Below the pieces are notes generated by a model. It saw nothing but the letters and a program-made list of their open reading frames with translations. It made no database searches and was not told the DNA's origin. DNA of 64,000 nucleotides, taken from IMG/VR virus record IMGVR_UViG_3300031949_000028, positions 1,009 to 65,008 of that record; one strand, 5' to 3'. The translations under genes and the position numbers were made by a program. This DNA comes from a virus (lineage: Duplodnaviria > Caudoviricetes). The stretch's first letter is position 1. Each line of letters opens with the position of its first letter. Below, in pieces: positions 11,696-22,316 of the stretch.

Positions 11696-13336
11696 ATATT
11701 TCCTCGTGTATTAGCAAGACTCAGGTGCGGTCCAAGATGTCTTTGATCTTTGCAGCGGTCAGGTCGTAGCCGCTGGCGCCTTCGTGCCCCCACAGCGCAA
11801 GCCCGATCCCGTACACCATGTCCTTGACGATGGTCACGTCCTGGTAGTCCTCGTAGCCGCTCTGCTCGTTGTATTCGGACGTGTAGTACGCCAGGTGCGC
11901 GATGGCCTTGCGGACGTGCTCACGGCGTTTCTTGGTTTCTCTCGCGTTCATGCCAGTGCCCTCAACAGACCAACTCAATCTCGAACGTCTCGACGCCGAT
12001 CCCATGCCACATCTCGGCGGCTTCCTTGGACTCGAACACGATCAGCACGCCTAGCGTTCCTTGGGCCTTGTCCACCAATCTCAGCGGACCCATCGATGTG
12101 GCAGCCTCCTTCACGAGTCGCTTCGTAACAAACATCGTGGTCGGCTTCTTTGTTGCGATCGTCGGCATGGTCTAAACAGCCTTAGTGCGAAATTCCTCGG
12201 CAGCCAGACACATCAGCACGCCGAGCGTTGTCCAAAAACCCGCGCTGAACGTCAGAATGACGGCTCCGATCAATATGCAGACCCGGTACGCTCTTTCGTA
12301 ATCGGTTTTCGTAATAGCCTCCATCAGGCAGACTCAGAACCGCGCCCATCGACCGTAGCCAACTTTCGACCACCAGAAATAGAGATCGTCTTCGGGGTCG
12401 TACCAGGCTTGCCAGCTCCAGCGATAGACGTAGTGCTTCTTTCCGTTTTTGTTGATACGCATAACTGCCCTCAATATACAAAAGGCTTGAGTGGATGGCT
12501 TACCTGTCGGTGCGTAATGCGCTGGACTTCGCGCCCACGGTTAACCGCGCTATTGGCTGCCATGTGCCTCACTGGTAGGCCATCCCTAAAACCTTCTGCT
12601 CTAACTGAACTCTTAACAACGTTTCGCGCTATTCAGACTTAGCGGCAAAGATTAAACAGCACTCTGCCGGTATTCGTAAAGCGTGTGCGCCATGCCGATC
12701 TCTGGAACGGTGCAATGAACCGCGCGACGCCTGACGTAGCTAAGCCACGTCCACTGGCCGCCGATCTTCACCGGATGCCACGCGAACCATCGGCACCAAT
12801 CTCCCTCGCTAACGAACATCGTTCCCATCATCCACGCGCACTTTGGCGCGCCTCGTAGTAGCCGTTGATAGCCTTGCAAATTTCGCGCACTCGTTCAGCG
12901 CTGATTCCCTGGTTACGAATGTCAGCGGCAGCAAGCTCTACGATGACGTAGCCGAACAATTCTTCCTTGTCCTTGGCTCTCGCGTAGAGGTCGGCAATGC
13001 TTCTAATCTTTGCCACCAGGGTCCTACCTAGTATCCGTACCGTTTGCGGTTTCGCTTACTCGTCGGGACAAGTTCGACGCGAACCATGCGAGCGTCATCG
13101 CTTGGCTTGGCGTCAATCTCATCGAGCAGGACGGACTTGAACGGAGCCGCCCAGTTGCAAAGCACCCAAGGACCGCCGTGTTCCGGTTGAAACTCCCAGG
13201 TCCACCCAAAGCCGCGCTGATTGACCTTTAGTGTGCTCACCACTACCTCCAGTCACCGAACTTGATGTGCTCGGATACCTTGAACACGGCAAGCACGGCA
13301 CAGATTGCAACTAACCAATAGAGCAGGTGAACGATT

Positions 13337-13594
13337 TCAGAATGGGATATCGTCATTTGGGTCTGGCTCGTTCGGTTCCGACTTCGGTTTCTGCGTCTGC
13401 CCTTGATCCTCTTTCGGCTTCACTGAAAGGCTCATGTACTTGTCGCCTTTCTTGCTCGTCTTGAGCCAAGCGTTGAGCCAAAACTCCTCCCCGCCGACGT
13501 TGATCGAGCCGCGGTAGTCTGGCCAGTTCGCGTTGCCTTTCTTGTCGTTCTTGAACAGGGCGCCCGTGTTCGTGTTGTCGTATTCCTGGCTCAC
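13337..13594 (-). CDS. SSB-like small protein
   Basis: GTG at 13594 overlapping the ERF stop; GALFKN...WPDYRGSINVGG..W..AW; acidic C-terminal DDIPF tail; adjacent to ERF. Confidence 0.7.
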   Translation of the reverse strand: MSQEYDNTNTGALFKNDKKGNANWPDYRGSINVGGEEFWLNAWLKTSKKGDKYMSLSVKPKEDQGQTQKPKSEPNEPDPNDDIPF

Positions 13595-14580
13595 GCTTTC
13601 AACTCCTTCTTGCGATCCTGGTACAGAGTGTTCACGTCGAGCGGAACCTCGTTCACGCCGTTCTCTGCATAGGCGTTCTGGATCGAGTCCCACGCCGCCT
13701 TTAACGCCTTGCCGTCCTTGCAGCTCGCGAGCACCTGACTCGCCCAACCGATCAGGTTCACGCCGCAGTCAGCGGCCTGTGCTTCGGCAAGCAGCTTCTT
13801 GATGCTCGATCGTTCCCAGGACCGTAACTCCCGCCACACAACCTCGCGCTCGTCGTTCTCGAGCTCGTTGACGATCTGTAGCAAACCTGGGCCGTCGTTG
13901 TTCTTGGTGGTCTCCAAGAGACCGTCCACGATCTGCCGCATTCGCTTTGGTCCGATCTTTGGCAGCGGCTCGTCCGGTTCCTTCGGAGTTGCGGCGTTGC
14001 CGTCATCATCCTCGTCGGTCATCGTGGCGTTGAAGATCATCAGCGTCAGATACCGGCGACCGTAGGAAAGGGCTGAGCCAGATCCGTGAGCGCGAGTCAT
14101 CATCGTCGTGCCCTTGATGCCGGTCAGCGTGAGCGGCGATGGGTATTCGTAGTCGCGTTTGTGTCCGCCAATGTGCGAGACGCGGCACGTCACGAGCACC
14201 GTGTCGGGCACATCGGTCTTGCCAGTACCGAACGAGAGCGCGAACCCATGGCGCGTGTAGATCGGGATCAGCGCGGCATTCACGGTCGGCAGCGTCGCGT
14301 ACATCGAGCTCGTCTGTGTGTTCTCTTCGTCGCGCTTGATGCGCGGCATTTCCTTTTGAACCTCCATGAGCGCAGTATTGAACTCGCGTTCGGCCCTGGC
14401 TTCCTCGCGCTCGTTGTACAGCTTCATCAGCCGTTCGAGCTTGTCGATGTCTACGGCCGGATCGGTCGCCGCACGGGTGATGACCGCGAGCACTTGGGCG
14501 CTATCGCTAATCATCACTGGCGGCTCACTCGGGGCGTCGATCATCGCTACGGCCGGAAGTAGTTCGGCTGTCTCAGTCAT
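13591..14580 (-). CDS. erf: ERF-family single-strand annealing recombinase
   Basis: YATLPTVNAALIPIYTRHGFALSF...GSALSYGRRYL..IFN....EDDDGNAA ERF signature. Confidence 0.9.
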   Translation of the reverse strand: MTETAELLPAVAMIDAPSEPPVMISDSAQVLAVITRAATDPAVDIDKLERLMKLYNEREEARAEREFNTALMEVQKEMPRIKRDEENTQTSSMYATLPTVNAALIPIYTRHGFALSFGTGKTDVPDTVLVTCRVSHIGGHKRDYEYPSPLTLTGIKGTTMMTRAHGSGSALSYGRRYLTLMIFNATMTDEDDDGNAATPKEPDEPLPKIGPKRMRQIVDGLLETTKNNDGPGLLQIVNELENDEREVVWRELRSWERSSIKKLLAEAQAADCGVNLIGWASQVLASCKDGKALKAAWDSIQNAYAENGVNEVPLDVNTLYQDRKKELKA

Positions 14581-14980
14581 GGTTGTCGTCCTCTAGGTCG
14601 TCCACATCGGGCATCGGCTCCCGCACTTCGCACGGCGGCTCGTTGGGCGGCGAAACATTGCGGTAGCGGACCGCTCGCTCCGAGGGGAGCCCGTACCCCG
14701 TCGTGAGCAGCGTCACGATTGCACGCGCCTCAGAAGGGCTCAGAATCACTTCGTCCTTGAACTTGTCGGCTTGCGCTGCTCGCAGGTTCAAGTCCGCCAC
14801 CCACTCCGCAGGGGTAAGGTCGTCGGGAGCGGGGCCAGCGGGTACGCCGTCCCAATCGTGGGCGTCGGAGTCCACGTCCCACGCCGCAGGGTCGAGCTTC
14901 TGTACCTTCACGTCGATTTGCTTCAACTCTGGAATGTCGGTTTTGTCGGTGCTCATTGCTGGCTCCATCATTGCATCCAT
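14573..14980 (-). CDS. hypothetical protein
   Basis: ORF MDAMMEP... upstream of erf. Confidence 0.5.
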   Translation of the reverse strand: MDAMMEPAMSTDKTDIPELKQIDVKVQKLDPAAWDVDSDAHDWDGVPAGPAPDDLTPAEWVADLNLRAAQADKFKDEVILSPSEARAIVTLLTTGYGLPSERAVRYRNVSPPNEPPCEVREPMPDVDDLEDDNHD

Positions 14981-15471
14981 TTTTCGTCGCTCTGTCTTGG
15001 TCTCTCTGGGTAGCGTTTGCGTCTCGGCACAGTCAGCGCGCGTTCGTCTGACCATCCGGCGCGAAGACGCTGATGCAGGACATGCGTCGGGAAGGTGAGC
15101 ATTTCTGCCCAGACCATGAGCGAACGAGTCACGCCATTTAGCGTGAGGTATCTCGTCGTGCTTCTGTTCAGATGCTGCTCACTCGGAGGTGCCCAGCGAC
15201 AGTTGCTAGGCTTGTAATTGTCATCGACGTTGATTCGCTCAATCGTCAACTCTTTTCGGTAGCCTGTCGCAATCGCCCAGGCGCGGAATACTGCGTAATC
15301 GCTCCACTCGTCGCAAATCGTGATTCCACGTCCGCCATATCTGTGATACCTGGTCTGGCTAGGTGAGAAGCACCGAGCGCGCATACCTGTCCAAATCGCA
15401 TAGAGCCTAACCGGTCGACCGTCGATAACACGACCGAAGGAACTCTTGTGCGACCAGCGTTTACGCCCCAT
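14968..15471 (-). CDS. HNH-type homing-endonuclease-like protein 1
   Basis: RLYAIW.GMR.RC...RYGGRGITICDEW...LTIERINVDDNYKPSNCRWA...NR. Confidence 0.8.
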   Translation of the reverse strand: MGRKRWSHKSSFGRVIDGRPVRLYAIWTGMRARCFSPSQTRYHRYGGRGITICDEWSDYAVFRAWAIATGYRKELTIERINVDDNYKPSNCRWAPPSEQHLNRSTTRYLTLNGVTRSLMVWAEMLTFPTHVLHQRLRAGWSDERALTVPRRKRYPERPRQSDEKWMQ

Positions 15472-15897
15472 GTTCGTTACTCGCTGGTATAGGTGCCGGT
15501 CGCGGAGGTGGATGCACAGCGATTCCCCGCGTCGATTGCTCGACAGACAACCTCACCCGAGGTCATCAACGTTTCATCGCCTGACTGATCTCCCACCGGC
15601 TGACGGGGTTTACTTGTGAAAGCCCCGAAGGGCAGCGGTCCGCCTACTGCGCACTCACCGTCTAATCGCGAGCGGCCGCCAGTAATTGAATAACTGTGCG
15701 CGTTCATGTTCGTTACTCGGGACTGTCCGGCGAAATGTGATCGCAGACTCGCTTGAGCCTCCGGCAATTTTCGAGCAGCCGTTGCTCGGCGGCATTTTCG
15801 GAGCCCGCATTGCCCAGGGCTTCGATAGAAGCAATCACCGCACAGGCCGCCGGCCAAAGTTGGTCCCACTTCTGTTCGAGGGTGAGGGGCTTGTCGG

Positions 15898-16446
15898 TCA
15901 CTTTGGATCTCCGCTCGGCTGGAACGATTTCGGTTTGCGGCCACGCGGTTTAGGCACATACCCAATTCGGGCGGCACCTGGCGGTGTCGTCAGGATTTGC
16001 TCATCGGTCCATCCGTTGGAGCGCCGCGTGCGGAGCGCTTCTTTCGTGAATCCGAGCGCGCGTGCCCACTCAGGGAGCGAGCGCGTAACGCTGTTGAGCG
16101 TGAGCATGATCGTGCGGCCGGTATTGGTCTGCTGCTCCTGGCGCGTGGCCCAACGGCAATTCCCTGGCTCGTAGTCGCCGTCGCTGCGCTCACGATCAAG
16201 CGTCAGATCCTTTCGATAGCCCTTGGCGATCGCCCACGCTCGGAACACGGCGTAGTCGTCCCACTCCGCGCAGACACGCACGCCCTTAGCGCCGTACCAC
16301 GGATAGTTGACCGACTTCGGATTGTTGCAACGGACGCGCATGTCCGACCAGATTATGTAGAGGCGGCACTTGATCGCGCGCTTCGCAACCGGGTAGGCCG
16401 TGCGGACCCAACTGCGTTCGTTGCCAGTGGACAGATTCGTATTCAT
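15898..16446 (-). CDS. HNH-type homing-endonuclease-like protein 2
   Basis: paralogue of 14968-15471 (YAVFRAWAIA.GYRK.LT...NCRWA...LTLN.VTRSL..WA). Confidence 0.8.
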   Translation of the reverse strand: MNTNLSTGNERSWVRTAYPVAKRAIKCRLYIIWSDMRVRCNNPKSVNYPWYGAKGVRVCAEWDDYAVFRAWAIAKGYRKDLTLDRERSDGDYEPGNCRWATRQEQQTNTGRTIMLTLNSVTRSLPEWARALGFTKEALRTRRSNGWTDEQILTTPPGAARIGYVPKPRGRKPKSFQPSGDPK

Positions 16447-16449
16447 TCG

Positions 16450-19055
16450 CTACTTGCCACCCTCGGCAGAGGACTGACGCGCATTGCGTGCGGCGCGCAG
16501 TTCGTTTTGCAGCTCAGAGCAGATTCGCGAGAGCGTTTCGCGCTGCCGAACCAGTTGGTTGATGGTGTTACGGTCGCGCTTCATGCGCCGCACCGCGCGG
16601 TCGCGCTGCTCATGCGTTGGTCGGTCGCCTTGCTCGGCCAGTTCGTCAAGAATGTTCACGCTTTCTCTCCCGTGTTGGACGCAGCCTCTTTTGCGCAGAT
16701 GTTAGAGGCGAGCCGCAGCGCGCTTGCTCCGTCAAAATTCGGCCATCTGTCGGCAGCGCGAGCGAACAGTCGCGACGCAATGTCGTACTTACCCGCGCGC
16801 TCTGCGCGGCGAGCTCGTGTCAACAGCGCGTGAGGTAGTGACAGGATTCTTGGTCGATTTGCGCGACAGCCTGCGTTCATGCTTTCTCTCCTGTGCCGGA
16901 CGAGGACTCGGTCGGAATGTCGTCCGGATCTTCCTCGTCGTTACCGAGCATCCGGTCTATGGCCGCGTCGCCGCTTCCTGACTCCTTGATCTCGGCGCTC
17001 ATCCATTCCGTGACGACGGGCGGCGGGTAGCCGTCGAGGTTGTAGCGCCGCTCAATTCTCAGGCAGGTCTGCCAGCCGTCGGGCTGGGCCATCGCCTTGC
17101 AGTACTCTTCCAGGTCGTGCTGAACGCTCACGAGCGGTCCTCGAATACGATCGCTTGGCGTTCAGCCGCTGCAACGATTGCCTTGCGCGCATCGGCGCCC
17201 GCCGCGATCGCAGAGTCGAACGGACCATGCCCATCGCCTATGCACTCGTCGTGCTCATCGGTCTCGTCCCAAAACCAGCCTGTACCTTGAATGCTGGCAT
17301 CGACCCAGAAAACTTTCGCGTTCACTTGTTTGCTCCTGCATCGGTGGAGGACTCGTAAGGCAATTCGTGTTGCGCGACCGCGCGGTGCGCTCGCGCGAGC
17401 ACGACACCAACCGGCCACGCCTTATCTTCTGGTGGCCGTACCTTCTCGACGCGTCGCGCCTCTGTCTCGGTGAACTGGTGGGCGTCGTCGATGTTCGTGG
17501 TGTATCCGCAGCGGCCTGTGCGCCACCACAAGGCGTCGTTGCCGGACCAGCCGCATTGCATGAAGTACATCGCACTCACGGTTCCGCTCCCGCGTCGGTT
17601 GAGGGTTCGACGCTAAATGGATCTTTCGGCATGTTCGCGATGTGCGACGGCCCTAGTTCCATGTGCGGGCCGCCGATCAGCCTGAACCTATGACCGGGAC
17701 CGTTTCCGTGATCGCCTTGGTCGAGTGCGTCGTAGAAGCCCACCCTGATGCGTGGCGCGCTCCACTTCGCGTTGAAGCCGAAGCAGTAGTAGCCAGGCAC
17801 GTCGGCCTTGCTCGCAGTTTTGGCGTCGAACCACGGCCCGATGGGGAAGGCTTTCTTTGTCACTGGGCCTATCTCGTGTAGTAGAAGTTGAACGTTTCCG
17901 GGTTCGTCATCTGCTCGACGACGATCGGCAATCCGCGAACGAGCGTCAGGCGATTGCAGTCGGCGATGTGGCGAATCTCGCGCTGCTGATCGTCCGAGAA
18001 CGTCACGCCGTACTCGGGCGCGAAAACTTGGATGCAGCCGTCGTCTAACTTGCGAACGCGCGCCTTGATGCCAGCGGCCTTGATGCGACGGCGAATATGG
18101 GCCGTCATCTCGACGAGATTTAGGCGTGCGTCTGCGCTGCTCGCCGCTCGCTTCTCGGCCGACAATTCCAAACACACCGAGCGAATCTCGGCGTCGGTTG
18201 CGATGTTCGTGCTCACTTGGTTTCTCCGGACGAGCACAAAGTCCGGTAAGCGATGCCGTGCGTACCGACGATCCACGTCCCGGTCCACACCGACTCGAAC
18301 ACGAAGTAGCGCTCGCCGTTTTTCGTGAAGGTCATGACTTCGCCTCGGCGGAGGATGAGAACGGTTGCGGATTCTCGGCATTCAGCCGCGCGACGTGAGA
18401 TCGGTTGCGCTCGTAGAAATCCGGGTGCCGCTTGCACTCAGGCAGCGTGACGCCGGTATTGCGCCAGTACGCGACGAGGCGCTCGACCATAGCGGGGCCG
18501 ATCACGGACGCGCGCCGGCCTCTGCCGCTCTTGATCGTCTCAACGCGCGTGCAGTCGCAGGCCCATACGAACCGCACGCGCGAGCCGCCGAGATAGACGG
18601 CGGTGCCGCGGTTCAATGCGTTGCGCTTCACCTTCACGATTTACCGCCCGTGTCGGACGAGGACAAAACGCCATAGCAGTCCGGGTTAATGCGCCCCTCA
18701 CGCTGCAATTGTCGGTAGCGCTTTTTAGCCACCTGTACTTCACGGCCGTCGTCGCGGCGCAAGTTGATTTTCATGAAGCCATCCAAGTCGAGACCGCGCC
18801 CGATGTATGCGTATTTGTGAATTGCGCGCGTGCTTGCGCTGCAACCAGGCGAATTACTCACGGCCTCTCTCCCTTCGTCGGCCAGTCGTGCAGAGCGTTC
18901 AATCCGTCGTGGAAGCGCCAGATGAACGAGTCGCGATCGGTCCAGCACAAATTGCCATCGACGCTTGTGACGTTGCCGAGAGAACGGCCGCGATAGGTCA
19001 CCGGATCACCCTTGCGCGGCTTGAGCGAAGCTGCTTTGTTCTGCGTGGTGCCCAT
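16450..19055 (-). other. array of about 11 translationally coupled small early genes
   Basis: ORFs 16450-16659, 16656-16880, 16877-17131, 17128-17325, 17322-17579, 17576-17863, 17869-18216, 18213-18335, 18332-18637, 18634-18948, 18858-19055, mostly with 4-nt ATGA/GTGA overlaps. Confidence 0.7.
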
Positions 19056-19197
19056 GACTTAAACCTCGTTCGTTAGCGGATGCACAGAAGGCAGGGCGGT
19101 GATAGGCTCGGGGGCCCGACAACCCCACGAAGAGGGCGGACCCATGCCACCGTCTGGATAGCTGCTGAATTTCCCGTTGCCTTGCTCATGGGAACGG

Positions 19198-19226
19198 AGA
19201 GTAATCCCTAAAAAGGGAAGTGTCAA
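19198..19226 (-). promoter_or_regulatory. leftward early promoter (PL-like)
   Basis: minus strand TTGACA (19226-19221), 17 bp, TACTCT (19203-19198). Confidence 0.8.
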
Positions 19227-19239
19227 CCCTAAAAAGGGA
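19205..19239. promoter_or_regulatory. left operators (2 x CCCTAAAAAGGG)
   Basis: TCCCTAAAAAGGGA at 19205-19218 and ACCCTAAAAAGGGA at 19226-19239, both overlapping or abutting the PL promoter. Confidence 0.85.
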
Positions 19240-19279
19240 CGTGCCGCACAGCGGCGGCGACGGGCGGGCCGGTCGAAGT

Positions 19280-19609
19280 CTAGAGCTGGGTTTTGCGGCG
19301 CTTGGTCGTGATGGGGGTCACGGCATCGCCACGAGCGAAGTAGGGGGTAACAAGCTCTTGCGGTCTAACGCCGAGGGCGGCGGCGAGCCATTCGATGTAG
19401 TCGATGCTCGTACCCTGGCTCTTGTCCAGGATGCGGTAGACTTGATTGATGCTGACGCCTGAGTCTGCGGCGAGCTGCCTGTTCTTGGCCGCGACAGACT
19501 TGAACTTGTCGGCCGGGTATTTCCGGTCCCGCAGCGTAGCGATGTTATCGGCTACGTAGTTCCGAACCAACGTCGGCGGTCGCTCTGATTTCGATCGTCG
19601 TTTCCCCAC
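19280..19609 (-). CDS. CI-like XRE HTH repressor (no S24 peptidase domain)
   Basis: GTG at 19609; NRQLAADSGVSINQVYRIL...SIDYIEWLAAALGV HTH; divergent from a cro-like gene. Confidence 0.8.
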   Translation of the reverse strand: MGKRRSKSERPPTLVRNYVADNIATLRDRKYPADKFKSVAAKNRQLAADSGVSINQVYRILDKSQGTSIDYIEWLAAALGVRPQELVTPYFARGDAVTPITTKRRKTQL

Positions 19610-19635
19610 GCTCAGATAGCCTACCTGCCCCGACT

Positions 19636-19677
19636 TCCCTAAATCGGGTTGCAGCGTCCCTAAAAAGGGATTAGCAT
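19636..19677 (+). promoter_or_regulatory. right operators and PR-like promoter
   Basis: TCCCTAAATCGGGT 19636-49 and TCCCTAAAAAGGGA 19657-70; TTGCAG (19649-54), 17 bp, TAGCAT (19672-77). Confidence 0.8.
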
Positions 19678-19685
19678 CCTGGGTC

Positions 19686-19898
19686 ATGGCTGAATCTATG
19701 CATGAGTTCGTTGTTCGTCGGCTTCTGGAATACCGGCCTATCGAGTGGCAGGAGATTGCCGAGAAAAGCGGCATTCCACTTCGCACGATCGAGAAGGTGG
19801 CCCGCCGCGTGTACCGATCGCACCGCATGGTGACGATTGAGCCGCTAGCTGAGCACTTGGGGTATTTCCGGCAGTTCCAGCGTCGTCGCGTTAGTTAG
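19686..19898 (+). CDS. Cro-like HTH protein
   Basis: WQEIAEKSGIPLRTIEKVA HTH; position opposite the repressor. Confidence 0.8.
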   Translation: MAESMHEFVVRRLLEYRPIEWQEIAEKSGIPLRTIEKVARRVYRSHRMVTIEPLAEHLGYFRQFQRRRVS

Positions 19899-19954
19899 TT
19901 GTTCTTGGAAGCCAGCCTAACCCGCTGGCTTTTCTTTCGCCCGATTCAGGACTT

Positions 19955-20386
19955 ATGGAAAGCCAAACGCACGATTCCGTAAAAAACCAGCCGGTTATGT
20001 CCGTTGGGAGCGGGTTCCCAAAGTTGTGCGGCTCATGCGGCAGGAGTACCGGCGACCGGAACCGACGAACGCGATTCTGTCGTCCGTGCAGACAAGAGCG
20101 CGAACGGGCGTACTCACGCGAGTACCGGCGTCGTTGTCCGATTGCTGTCAAAGCTCACTACGCGGTGCAGCTTGAAATTCAGCGCGGCAATTTGCCAAAG
20201 GCCGACGAGCTGAAATGCACTGACTGTGATCGTAACGCGAACTGTTACGACCACCGCGACTATACCAAGCCTCTCGAAGTCGATCCGGTTTGCGGCGGCT
20301 GCAACAAGCGTCGCGGGCCAGCTCATCCCTACATCAACGCCAACCTTCGTCTGTCCATCGGTATCGAGCCGGAGTGGAAGCCATGA
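19955..20386 (+). CDS. Zn-finger/HNH-like protein
   Basis: CxxC pairs and CYDHRDYTKPLEVDPVCGGCNKRRG. Confidence 0.55.
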   Translation: MESQTHDSVKNQPVMSVGSGFPKLCGSCGRSTGDRNRRTRFCRPCRQERERAYSREYRRRCPIAVKAHYAVQLEIQRGNLPKADELKCTDCDRNANCYDHRDYTKPLEVDPVCGGCNKRRGPAHPYINANLRLSIGIEPEWKP

Positions 20387-22316
20387 GTGAGCCTCTTGTT
20401 CGAGCGCCGTGGCGTATCGCCTTCCGATCAGAGGGCGAGTACGTGAACTGCTACTTCGCCGACGAGCACACGATGGAGGGCGCCATTCTGCTCAGCTCTC
20501 TCAAGCGCAGTATCGCCGAACTCGGAATGTTCGACGCTTGGCGCGAGTTCATGCAGGACGCAATGCGCGCTGTCACAAAGGACACGCTCGGCGTTGCCTG
20601 CGAGTACCCCGAGGAACCGCAACCAGCGCCCGAGCACGAACGTGCGGGCCGAGGATAGATCCATGCAAACAATCCAGATGCCAGACGGTCGCCTACTCCG
20701 CGAGCTGTTCAGCGAGGAAGAAGTGCGCCAAGGCAAGCACACGCGGCGCCGTCAAGAGCTTGAAAAGCTCGGTGGCAAGTTCAAGCGCTTCGAGTGGGTA
20801 AGCACGAGCAAGTACGAGCCACACCAAGGCGAGCGTGAGTGTGCTCGTCGTCGCCGACAGATGGAGCGAGCGACGGCATGAACTCTGTCGGTATCGAGCC
20901 GGGGGAGCTGCGGTGAAGCGAGAATACCTCGACGCGCTGATCGAATCGTACTGGGATCACCTACCGAAGCTAGGGAAGTCCACGGCAGACGACGACGCGC
21001 ACCTGGCTATCAAAATCGAAATCAGTCGGCTCTGCGGCGTACAGCGCGGGCTCGGACTCAAGTCGTATCTCGAACGACTGGCAGTGGCCCCATGAAGCTC
21101 GCGGCCCGAATCCGTACCGCCAACGAGTCTGCTCAGCCGTTCGTCTACCGCGTTCAGGACCGATCTGGTCGTGGGCCGTTTCGTCCTGGCTTTTCGCGTC
21201 GCTGGTGTGACGACAATTTTACGCACGGCATGTTGGCGTTGCCTACGTGGCTTGAAGAGTTCGGCGCCGACCTGATCGAAAAGCAACGAAAGCCGGAAGA
21301 GTTTTACGGAACTGCCGTTCGTGATCCTGGCGCACTTGGCAAGTGGTTTTCGCCGACCGAGCAAGCGCGGCTGGTCCGGCTGCACTTTCACGTGGTCTCG
21401 ATGCGTCCAACTCGCATTTTAGCAGAAAGCGAGAACCAGCTCGTATTTGCTCGCTTGCTCCCGCTATCGATGGGAGTCGTGTCGTTGCCGTGGCGCTCTA
21501 TTGCGGAGGCCGCATGAGCGACGCACTCAAAGCTGCCGAGCAGCACCTAGCCGAGTTAGTCGCCAACGGAGTTGCCGCGCGCGACAAGCCGAGTGCGCTC
21601 CACTTCGGGCTCATCACGACGCTCGCGGCCGAGCTGAAACAGTGCCGCACCAAGCTCGACAAGGTGATGGCGCATCCGAGCGTATCGCTATCGACCTACG
21701 AGGCCGTAGAGCGCGAGCGGGATGCCGCGCTGGCCCGTGTCTCACGTCTCAGAGACATCGACCCGCTTGCGTCCGACATGCTCGACGCAATGGATCGGCT
21801 GGCGAAGCAGCGCGACGAAGCCCATGAGGAACTCGCTGTCACCCAGATACAGCTAGATAACGCCGCGCACGAAGCCAAGGAATTTCGTCTAGCTCATAAC
21901 CGCCTCATGGAACTGTACAAGAAAACCAAGATGGATCACGGACTTTGCGAGCCAGTTGAACGGAAGGCTTGCACGAATTGCGCGGCGCGACGAGAGCTTG
22001 ATCGGCTGTTGTCAGAATGGAAGGGGCCGCGAGTGGTGCTCGCATGACCCTCTCTCACCGCCTCCGCCGCACCATCCGCCGCCTCTCGCTGTTCGAGATC
22101 GTCAAGCCGATCAAGCGTCCCAAGTTCCCAGTGAACCACGAACTCGTTCGTAGTCGTCACCAAGCCTACGACGATCTACGTGCTCGTGATCTTTCAATCG
22201 AAGGCGGGGAGCGCTCCAACCTAAAGCGCTTCATCGCTCGAACCCAGCGTTTGCAGCTCATCGAGCAGCGCAAGCCGAAAGCATCCATTTTGAAGTTAGT
22301 GAGGTCGCGAGGATGA
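20383..22316 (+). other. coupled small rightward early genes
   Basis: ORFs 20383-20658, 20663-20881, 20913-21095, 21092-21517, 21514-22047 (coiled coil), 22044-22316. Confidence 0.6.

Follow-up and report, generated by a model that had tools for sequence, protein, structure and literature searches.

A recurrent in-frame connector at the boundaries of small early genes in an uncultured soil phage

The genome of an uncultured soil phage in IMG/VR (record IMGVR_UViG_3300031949_000028, 65,008 bp) has a leftward early operon on the minus strand, in which a short DNA sequence, here called the connector, recurs where one small gene ends and the next begins. Positions are given for the window, the 64 kb of this record that were analysed. 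The operon starts at ~ 19225, adjoining a gene for a cI-like repressor (19280-19828), and contains about 15 small genes followed by the gene of an ERF-family annealing protein. Its genes were named g1-g17, counted downwards from 19055; g1-g13 form a chain with GTGA or ATGA stop-start overlaps at 10 of its 12 boundaries (Table 1). The majority of the operon products has no family match. A preliminary description of the region had noticed that unrelated small genes of this operon share a C-terminal tail, and the chain proteins are indeed mutually unrelated with the exception of g12, which has a paralogue in g15; other local similarities are restricted to the tails. A scan of the region from 13000 to 20500 called no promoter-like site, and none of the seven terminator-like sites found in the scanned region is on the minus strand within the chain.

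The connector is present at 8 of the 12 consecutive gene boundaries (16444-18666), always in the same orientation and only within ~ 2.5 kb downstream of the early promoter. Twelve long-form copies gave the consensus (G)AG-YCCTC-NN-CCGAC-RCR-GGAG-NN-RA-NNN-RTGA, with an overall length of ~ 27-33 nt, and there is also a shorter form, YCCTC-YG-CCGAGG. The 3' half corresponds to the Shine-Dalgarno sequence of the next gene (GGAG at -11 to -8, 7 nt before the start), and the start codon within RTGA overlaps the stop codon of the upstream gene. Because the upstream reading frame runs through the entire connector in a constant phase, the connector is translated as (E)-S-S-x-D-x-G-x-x-K. All 18 copies found in the window and in related phages are located within the upstream open reading frame (ORF) and in one frame, including two copies without a stop-start overlap, and the tail is always followed by a start codon within 4 nt. 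Connector junctions are the largest direct-repeat family of the region (family D1). All nine C-termini listed in the preliminary description had been read correctly, and its view of a standard junction carrying the ribosome-binding site and overlapping start of the next gene, with GGAG as the Shine-Dalgarno sequence, is supported. The extent of the motif had been overestimated: at 18858, 15898 and 5834 there is only a Shine-Dalgarno sequence read in frame, and 15477 and 7943 are without the motif.

A Shine-Dalgarno sequence at a fixed phase alone yields part of any shared tail and, therefore, leave-one-out weight matrices were limited to positions -30 to -14, without the Shine-Dalgarno core and the start codon, and compared with all genome positions. 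Five junctions matched in register (starts 18637, 17579, 17325, 16880 and 16659) with p = 3e-5 to 2e-3. At starts 18335 and 18216 the match was 6 bases closer to the start (p = 0.011 and 0.004, corrected) and at start 16446 it was 1 base further away (p = 0.01, corrected); no match was obtained at g1/g2 (18861), g5/g6, g8/g9 and g12/g13 (15901). With a matrix trained on seven copies from other phages only, four junctions of the window were the top 4 of 130,000 genome positions. The motif thus extends beyond the Shine-Dalgarno sequence, as had been claimed, and its 5' half is significant alone (leave-one-out p = 3e-5 to 0.011). Pairwise similarity of the upstream 20 nt reached a maximum of 13/20, the same as in three control loci and not extreme, and a loose pattern with one mismatch was not enriched; therefore, the signal is that of a register-specific family and not of any single pair. 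The connector family is real, lineage-specific and embedded in coding sequence.

Table 1 Features of the early operon in the window (tails are written up to the stop codon)
Feature	Position	Strand	Remarks
Chain g1-g13 (13 small early genes)	15713-19055	minus	
g1	18858-19055	minus	
g2	18634-18861	minus	
g3	18332-18637	minus	
g4	18213-18335	minus	
g5	17869-18216	minus	
g6	17576-17863	minus	
g7	17322-17579	minus	
g8	17128-17325	minus	
g9	16877-17131	minus	
g10	16656-16880	minus	
g11	16450-16659	minus	
g12	15898-16446	minus	
g13	15713-15901	minus	
ERF-family single-strand annealing recombinase, same operon	13591-14580	minus	PF04404, E=4.8e-14
Likely early-left promoter (TTGACA, 17 nt, TACTCT) with 2 copies of palindrome CCCTTTTTAGGG	19195-19245	minus	by eye, upstream of g1; not called by scan
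Connector g2/g3, long form TCCTC-GT-CCGAC-ACG-GGCGG...GTGA, tail SSSDTGGKS	18634-18666	minus	p=1e-4, score 16.1
Connector g3/g4, short form TCCTC-CG-CCGAGG...ATGA, 2 codons shorter, tail SSSAEAKS	18332-18358	minus	shift -6, p=0.011
Connector g4/g5, short form, degenerate first block TGCTC-GT-CCGGAG...GTGA, tail CSSGETK	18213-18236	minus	shift -6, p=0.004
Connector g6/g7, long form, tail PSTDAGAEP	17576-17608	minus	score 23.8; 85% over 33 nt to junction in relative G001
Connector g7/g8, long form, tail SSTDAGANK	17322-17354	minus	score 27.7; 85% over 40 nt to junction in soil relative L085/L068
Connector g9/g10, long form, tail SSSGTGEKA	16877-16909	minus	score 20.6; kept in g9 orthologue of soil relative L092
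Connector g10/g11, long form, degenerate first block, tail ASNTGEKA	16656-16688	minus	p=0.002; 80% to g9/g10 copy
Connector g11/g12, short form, no overlap (TAG, 3 nt, ATG), tail SSAEGGK	16444-16476	minus	shift +1, p=0.01
Junction g12/g13, Shine-Dalgarno + GTGA, no upstream blocks, tail PSGDPK	15898-15920	minus	p=0.4-0.8
Junction g1/g2, same type as g12/g13, Shine-Dalgarno only	18858-18880	minus	p=0.4-0.8
Junction g8/g9, same type as g12/g13, Shine-Dalgarno only	17128-17150	minus	p=0.4-0.8

Conservation was analysed in the 12 long-form copies, which come from five phage genomes or haplotypes. The conserved columns are contiguous blocks with no period of three: the invariant blocks run over codon positions 1-2-3-1-2 and 2-3-1-2-3, and codon positions 1 and 2 are found among the free columns. 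The first Ser of the tail, where present, is encoded by TCC (9/9 copies), which makes up 15% of Ser codons, the third residue is encoded by NCC in 11/12 copies (NCC makes up 23% of NCN) and varies between Ser, Thr and Pro, and GGA (18% of Gly codons) is found at the Gly position in 9/12. ACA and GCA, likewise rare codons at conserved third positions, account for 11-12% of their codons. AGY serine codons do not occur in the copies, and the first base of residue 3 is A, C or T. Homologues of g7 at 65-68% identity, as well as those in F116, phi297 and Burkholderia phages, are without the tail; 4 of 6 g9 homologues (62-82% identity) have other tails or none, and 10 of 10 g6 homologues, up to 87% identical, diverge right after the conserved ...DPFS. 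By these measures the conservation pattern is one of nucleotide constraint, not peptide constraint. Since rare codons are fixed, codon positions 1 and 2 vary and close homologues of g6, g7 and g9 either lack the tail or end differently, the shared sequence S-S-x-D-x-G-x-x-K is, on this evidence, a translation by-product of the connector. Sub-families can be told apart by the free dinucleotide, which is GT in g2, g4, g9 and g10, CA in five copies from more than one phage and AC in the soil population described below; therefore, the copies are kin by descent and not independent draws, which indicates spread of the connector by copying. In F116 (L031, 3001-3642) a protein of 213 residues has the g7 domain (PHROG 2457) as its N-terminal third, and the g7 match in phi297 overlaps a gene annotated as DUF4406 domain-containing.

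The region gave no match at DNA level in 50,697 phage records, protein searches of phage records with g3 and g6 found nothing, 29 ERF-related IMG/VR loci (36-51% identity) contained no connector copy, g7-based locus searches of viral and metagenome contigs found none, and a portal-based search returned just three short contigs. The single match of an over-specific pattern was rejected as a chance hit inside a primase-like gene, and a stricter pattern, used to search species genomes for prophages, had a single match in a Lachnospiraceae genome that was likewise attributed to chance. Scanning IMG/VR with a degenerate pattern led to one junction in G001, a complete phage of 45.5 kb. G001 is a true relative, as DNA identity is 66-70% across ~ 15 kb of late genes; the early region shows no relation to the window save for an HNH-like gene and this one connector junction, which is 85% identical over 33 nt to g6/g7 and joins a small membrane protein to an unrelated 77-residue gene. 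The last 26 residues of the membrane protein (L047:2380-2460) are similar to the C-termini of the g6 family (GPS...M..D.F...PSTDAGAKP), and the gene looks like a new 5' part attached to what remains of the 3' end of a g6-like gene.

With the same pattern, more copies were found in metagenome contigs of a soil population, of which L092, L094/L074 and L085+L068 (five contigs, Ga0137 series) proved to be relatives; the similar-looking L060 and L070 were not counted among them. Between flanks that are 98-100% identical these relatives carry three different sets of small-gene cassettes, and nearly all cassette genes end in the motif (SSPDAGVER, SSTDGSVER, SSTGTGVER, SSAGEPS, SSTDTGASK, SSPDAEGKR, HPDAGASK, CSAEGAIK and SSTLQAQE). 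L092 has a g9 orthologue (72% protein identity), and the DNA of the two g9 genes is 70-90% identical between the start codon and the GGAG in the following connector, with background level on either side and peak identity within the connector itself. In the window g9 is preceded by a motif-less junction, in L092 by a motif junction. A gene present in full length in L094 is joined in L068, at its codon 18, to the start codon of a connector. Homology between related phages thus begins or ends in the connector at g9/L092 and at the L068 joint. The copies in G001 and in L085/L068 are isolated identity islands of 33-40 nt amid unrelated genes, and two internal copies of L085+L068 share 24 nt at 96%. 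Because related phages join other genes with the same connector, these alignments argue that the connector is a mark of where genes are swapped. Two further observations were made in the soil population: the initial ten codons of the first variable gene (MSATEQKSGA) are kept in all three variants, and larger genes are linked through mini-ORFs (27 and 29 codons) by ATGA overlaps.

The junctions thus show three properties: the geometry of termination-reinitiation, conservation of nucleotides, and a connector that stays in place as the genes around it change. We favour, as probable though far from certain, the explanation that the connectors are phase-compatible joints which both keep translational coupling and serve for recombination. 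A ribosome terminating at UGA would restart at the overlapping start (termination-reinitiation), and by this hand-over the promoter-less small genes would be expressed as a single coupled chain. As all copies are in one phase, recombination between any two connectors, in the same genome or in co-infecting relatives, would insert, delete or replace whole genes, and the upstream frame and the downstream start would be intact after the crossover. Our candidate enzyme for such exchange at short homologies is the ERF-type annealing protein encoded in the same operon.

Several observations weigh against joints of this kind. With 27-35 nt at 60-85% identity the copies are short for homologous exchange, and two tight pentamers beside free positions would fit a sequence-specific reader better than recombination homology. 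Both coupling and recombination are what we infer from sequence. G001 has one clear copy only, and its count of the loose motif equals the control count. A pattern scan of metagenomes gave 44 matches, about the number that we estimated for chance, and the motif is therefore a feature of this lineage and not a general one. That gene swaps break at the motif, as anticipated in the preliminary description, holds for g9/L092 and the L068 joint, but two further breakpoints of the soil population are near motif-less gene starts and, therefore, the connectors are not the sole joints. Neighbouring connectors are no more alike than distant ones (p = 0.13 and 0.42), and adjacency as a footprint of circle insertion was dropped as not significant. 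Contigs from one run with this phage, probably its source, contained no deletion or joint variants, a result that, coming from contigs only, is uninformative on absence.

Of the other explanations, we regard it as barely credible that the tails reflect a Shine-Dalgarno sequence in fixed frame plus chance and base composition and no more. Short tails do arise in this way: 29 other phage loci share tails of 2-3 residues, such as E-A-A before the stop from GGAGGCAGC-ATGA, and the ordinary upstream similarity and the lack of enrichment of the loose pattern agree with it. It is contradicted by the leave-one-out and cross-phage matrices, which lack the ribosome-binding site and are highly significant and register-specific, and by copies in other phages that are 85% identical over 33-40 nt. 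Many overlapping junctions of the ERF-bearing viral contigs L001-L029 read GGAGGCAGC-ATGA or near to it, with unrelated proteins ending in E-A-A, R-A-A or K-A-A; judged by their sequence, these tails are a minimal, ribosome-site-only version of the shared tails. A peptide S-S-x-D-x-G-x-x-K selected as degron, docking motif or nascent-chain signal that slows release at UGA, in other words the shared C-terminal tag proposed earlier, is disfavoured and in our view very unlikely. It would account for the common frame of all 18 copies, also of the two without stop-start overlap, and for the conservative replacements S/T/P/A and T/A. However, the RTGA overlap and in-frame indels suffice to keep the frame fixed, synonymous third positions are fixed on rare codons, residue 3 varies in its first base with AGY Ser absent, homologues 76-87% identical are without the tail, and the tail never occurs without the downstream start. 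The preliminary description had also proposed a coupling hairpin in which the upstream CCUC pairs with GGAG/GAGG and hides the ribosome-binding site until a translating ribosome melts the stem. Such structures were suggested by Huber et al. for overlapping gene pairs of Escherichia coli (PMC6728339), and 7 of 8 junctions folded alone form a small stem touching the ribosome-binding site, but their energies (z = -1.8 to +0.2) are no better than those of dinucleotide shuffles, as are those of 63-nt folds (z = -2.0 to +1.9). RNAalifold found no consensus pair in the eight junctions. The complementarity of TCCTC to the ribosome-binding site exists on paper, but the 4-bp helix UCCU:AGGA pairs in 77% of cells compared to 78.5% in shuffles and 43-66% when slid, with no covariation, and the second block, CCGAC, is without a pairing partner. 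The unpaired probability of the ribosome-binding site was 0.42 versus 0.44 in 127 control overlapping junctions of other phages, and the motif junctions were less structured than these controls (-14.3 versus -17.4 kcal/mol, p = 0.01). A site-occluding hairpin as a general feature is not supported by stability, covariation or accessibility, and we think it very unlikely as an explanation. For the short form a hairpin is possible: these junctions can form CCUC-tetraloop-GRGG, and the g11/g12 copy (-10.3 kcal/mol, z = -1.8) is the sole copy standing out.

A different explanation is that the 19-nt block YCCTC-NN-CCGAC-RCR-GGAG is an operator at which a phage or host RNA- or DNA-binding protein co-switches translation or stability of the early genes, recombination at the site being a side effect of its conservation. 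T4 RegA and RegB act on early-gene ribosome-binding sites. Two near-invariant pentamers around free positions, conservation beyond the needs of a ribosome-binding site, the restriction to the start of the early operon in one orientation and the 85% identity of the copy shared with G001, compared to 66-70% for the best conserved late genes, all agree with an operator, and the authors who described the start-associated sequences (SAS) of mycobacteriophages argued likewise (PMC3203893), although the function of SAS is itself still untested (PMC12699233). On the other hand, no reader candidate was found, no antisense or complementary RNA partner for the connector is encoded elsewhere in the genome, G001 retains a single clear copy, and the "free" positions are sub-families by descent and unsaturated, so that common descent may explain some of the conservation. 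On balance we consider an operator unlikely, albeit with an appreciable chance of being right. A resemblance of ACA-GGA-G to a CsrA/RsmA site, noticed by eye, was dropped because the spacing does not fit. It is also conceivable, but rather improbable, that the connectors are sites of a dedicated system, either with a reader of YCCTC-NN-CCGAC that controls translation of early accessory genes, or with an integron-like exchange of "translational cassettes", in which phage proteins, the ERF annealing protein and possibly also the duplicated HNH-like g12/g15, would capture promoter-less in-phase genes at connectors. To assign the reading of the pentamers to g12/g15 is only a guess, because the structure model of g12 (three sequences, predicted local distance difference test score, pLDDT, of 54) is too poor for a fold search; no solved structure matched g12 by sequence. 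Plant DREB AP2 domains bind a CCGAC core, and g12 and g15 might be AP2-like; as Pfam gave no AP2 match, this is a lead only.

The paralogues g12 and g15 (14968-15471, minus strand) are 50% identical and match PHROG 3377, labelled "HNH endonuclease"; they belong to no Pfam family and have a homologue in G001 (L047:3092-3559). In their HNH motif, identified by eye, the usual D-H reads D-R or E-R and, therefore, the proteins may be DNA-binding only. AAGT repeats on both sides of g12 give the impression that it was inserted into a connector that once joined g11 to g13. On the minus strand the word TAACGAAC is located just 5' of the starts of g15 (15472-15479), g14 (15708-15715) and g1 (19068-19075); the window contains five copies versus 1.5 expected, three of them at gene starts of the early operon, and g12 has a similar word, TAGCGAATG. 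The two copies of the palindrome CCCTTTTTAGGG around the early-left promoter are probably repressor operators. A 146-nt stretch of G001 matches both ends of the genome (G000:C1 67-212 and 64863-65008), which suggests a direct terminal repeat and hence a complete genome.

Mosaicism of phages at gene boundaries poses an old question, that is, homologous exchange at linkers or random illegitimate joining followed by selection, and to our knowledge clear examples of linkers are rare. The lineage described here supplies a well-defined connector in many copies as a tractable system for the linker model, and the natural soil population has at least three cassette arrangements between identical flanks; therefore, the question becomes testable. 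For annotation there is a warning, since C-terminal tails shared by small phage proteins can stem from the start region of the next gene without being protein motifs. The idea of a conserved boundary (linker) sequence originates from lambdoid phages.

How do the connectors compare with known systems? Unlike the attC cassettes of integrons they have no conserved pairing, and the scanned chain proteins gave no integrase-type domain. With gene pairs coupled by termination-reinitiation at ATGA/GTGA overlaps (PMC6728339) they share the 4-nt stop-start overlap and the Shine-Dalgarno sequence in the 3' end of the upstream gene, but that mechanism needs only the overlap and the ribosome-binding site and leaves the YCCTC and CCGAC blocks and their recurrence unexplained. 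The SAS of Cluster K mycobacteriophages are 13 bp long with the consensus GGGATAGGAGCCC, often with a 17-bp inverted-repeat extension (PMC3203893, PMC12699233), and had been named as an analogy in the preliminary description. The analogy is apt, as both elements are asymmetric, have a Shine-Dalgarno core, are conserved beyond pairing with the 16S rRNA and precede the starts of non-structural genes of different families in one orientation; sequence and placement differ. SAS, known from actinobacterial phages, are nearly always outside ORFs (only 6/125 are inside; PMC12699233), whereas the connectors are inside the upstream ORF in 18 of 18 cases, and GGGATAGGAGCCC with up to two mismatches had one match, in the late region, versus 1.27 expected by chance.

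The best-studied shuffling cassettes are the promoter-early stem-loops (PeSLs) of T4-type phages, intergenic cassettes of ~ 100 bp with a sigma-70 promoter and a terminator stem-loop, for which mini-circles were shown (PMC2839356). Like the connectors they are repeated, flank orphan genes in a hyperplastic early region, end in the ribosome-binding site and start of the next gene and serve as recombination sites for gene shuffling. The connectors, in contrast, are within the upstream coding frame, with no promoter-like site in 13000-20500 and no consensus stem-loop, and, unlike the PeSLs with their mini-circles, are known from sequence alone. The nearest concept is the short conserved boundary sequence at mosaic joints. 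In mycobacteriophage Island3, gp67 and gp68 have 18 C-terminal residues in common via ~ 50 bp of DNA (PMC3029335): as in the chain studied here, short DNA at the 3' ends of unrelated neighbours gives the same C-terminal residues, and it was read as a recombination site by which a whole gene is inserted or deleted. Unlike the Island3 pair, the connector occurs eight times in a single operon, has a defined consensus that includes two conserved pentamers, keeps one phase and carries a start that overlaps the upstream stop, and it recurs in at least three distinct phages.

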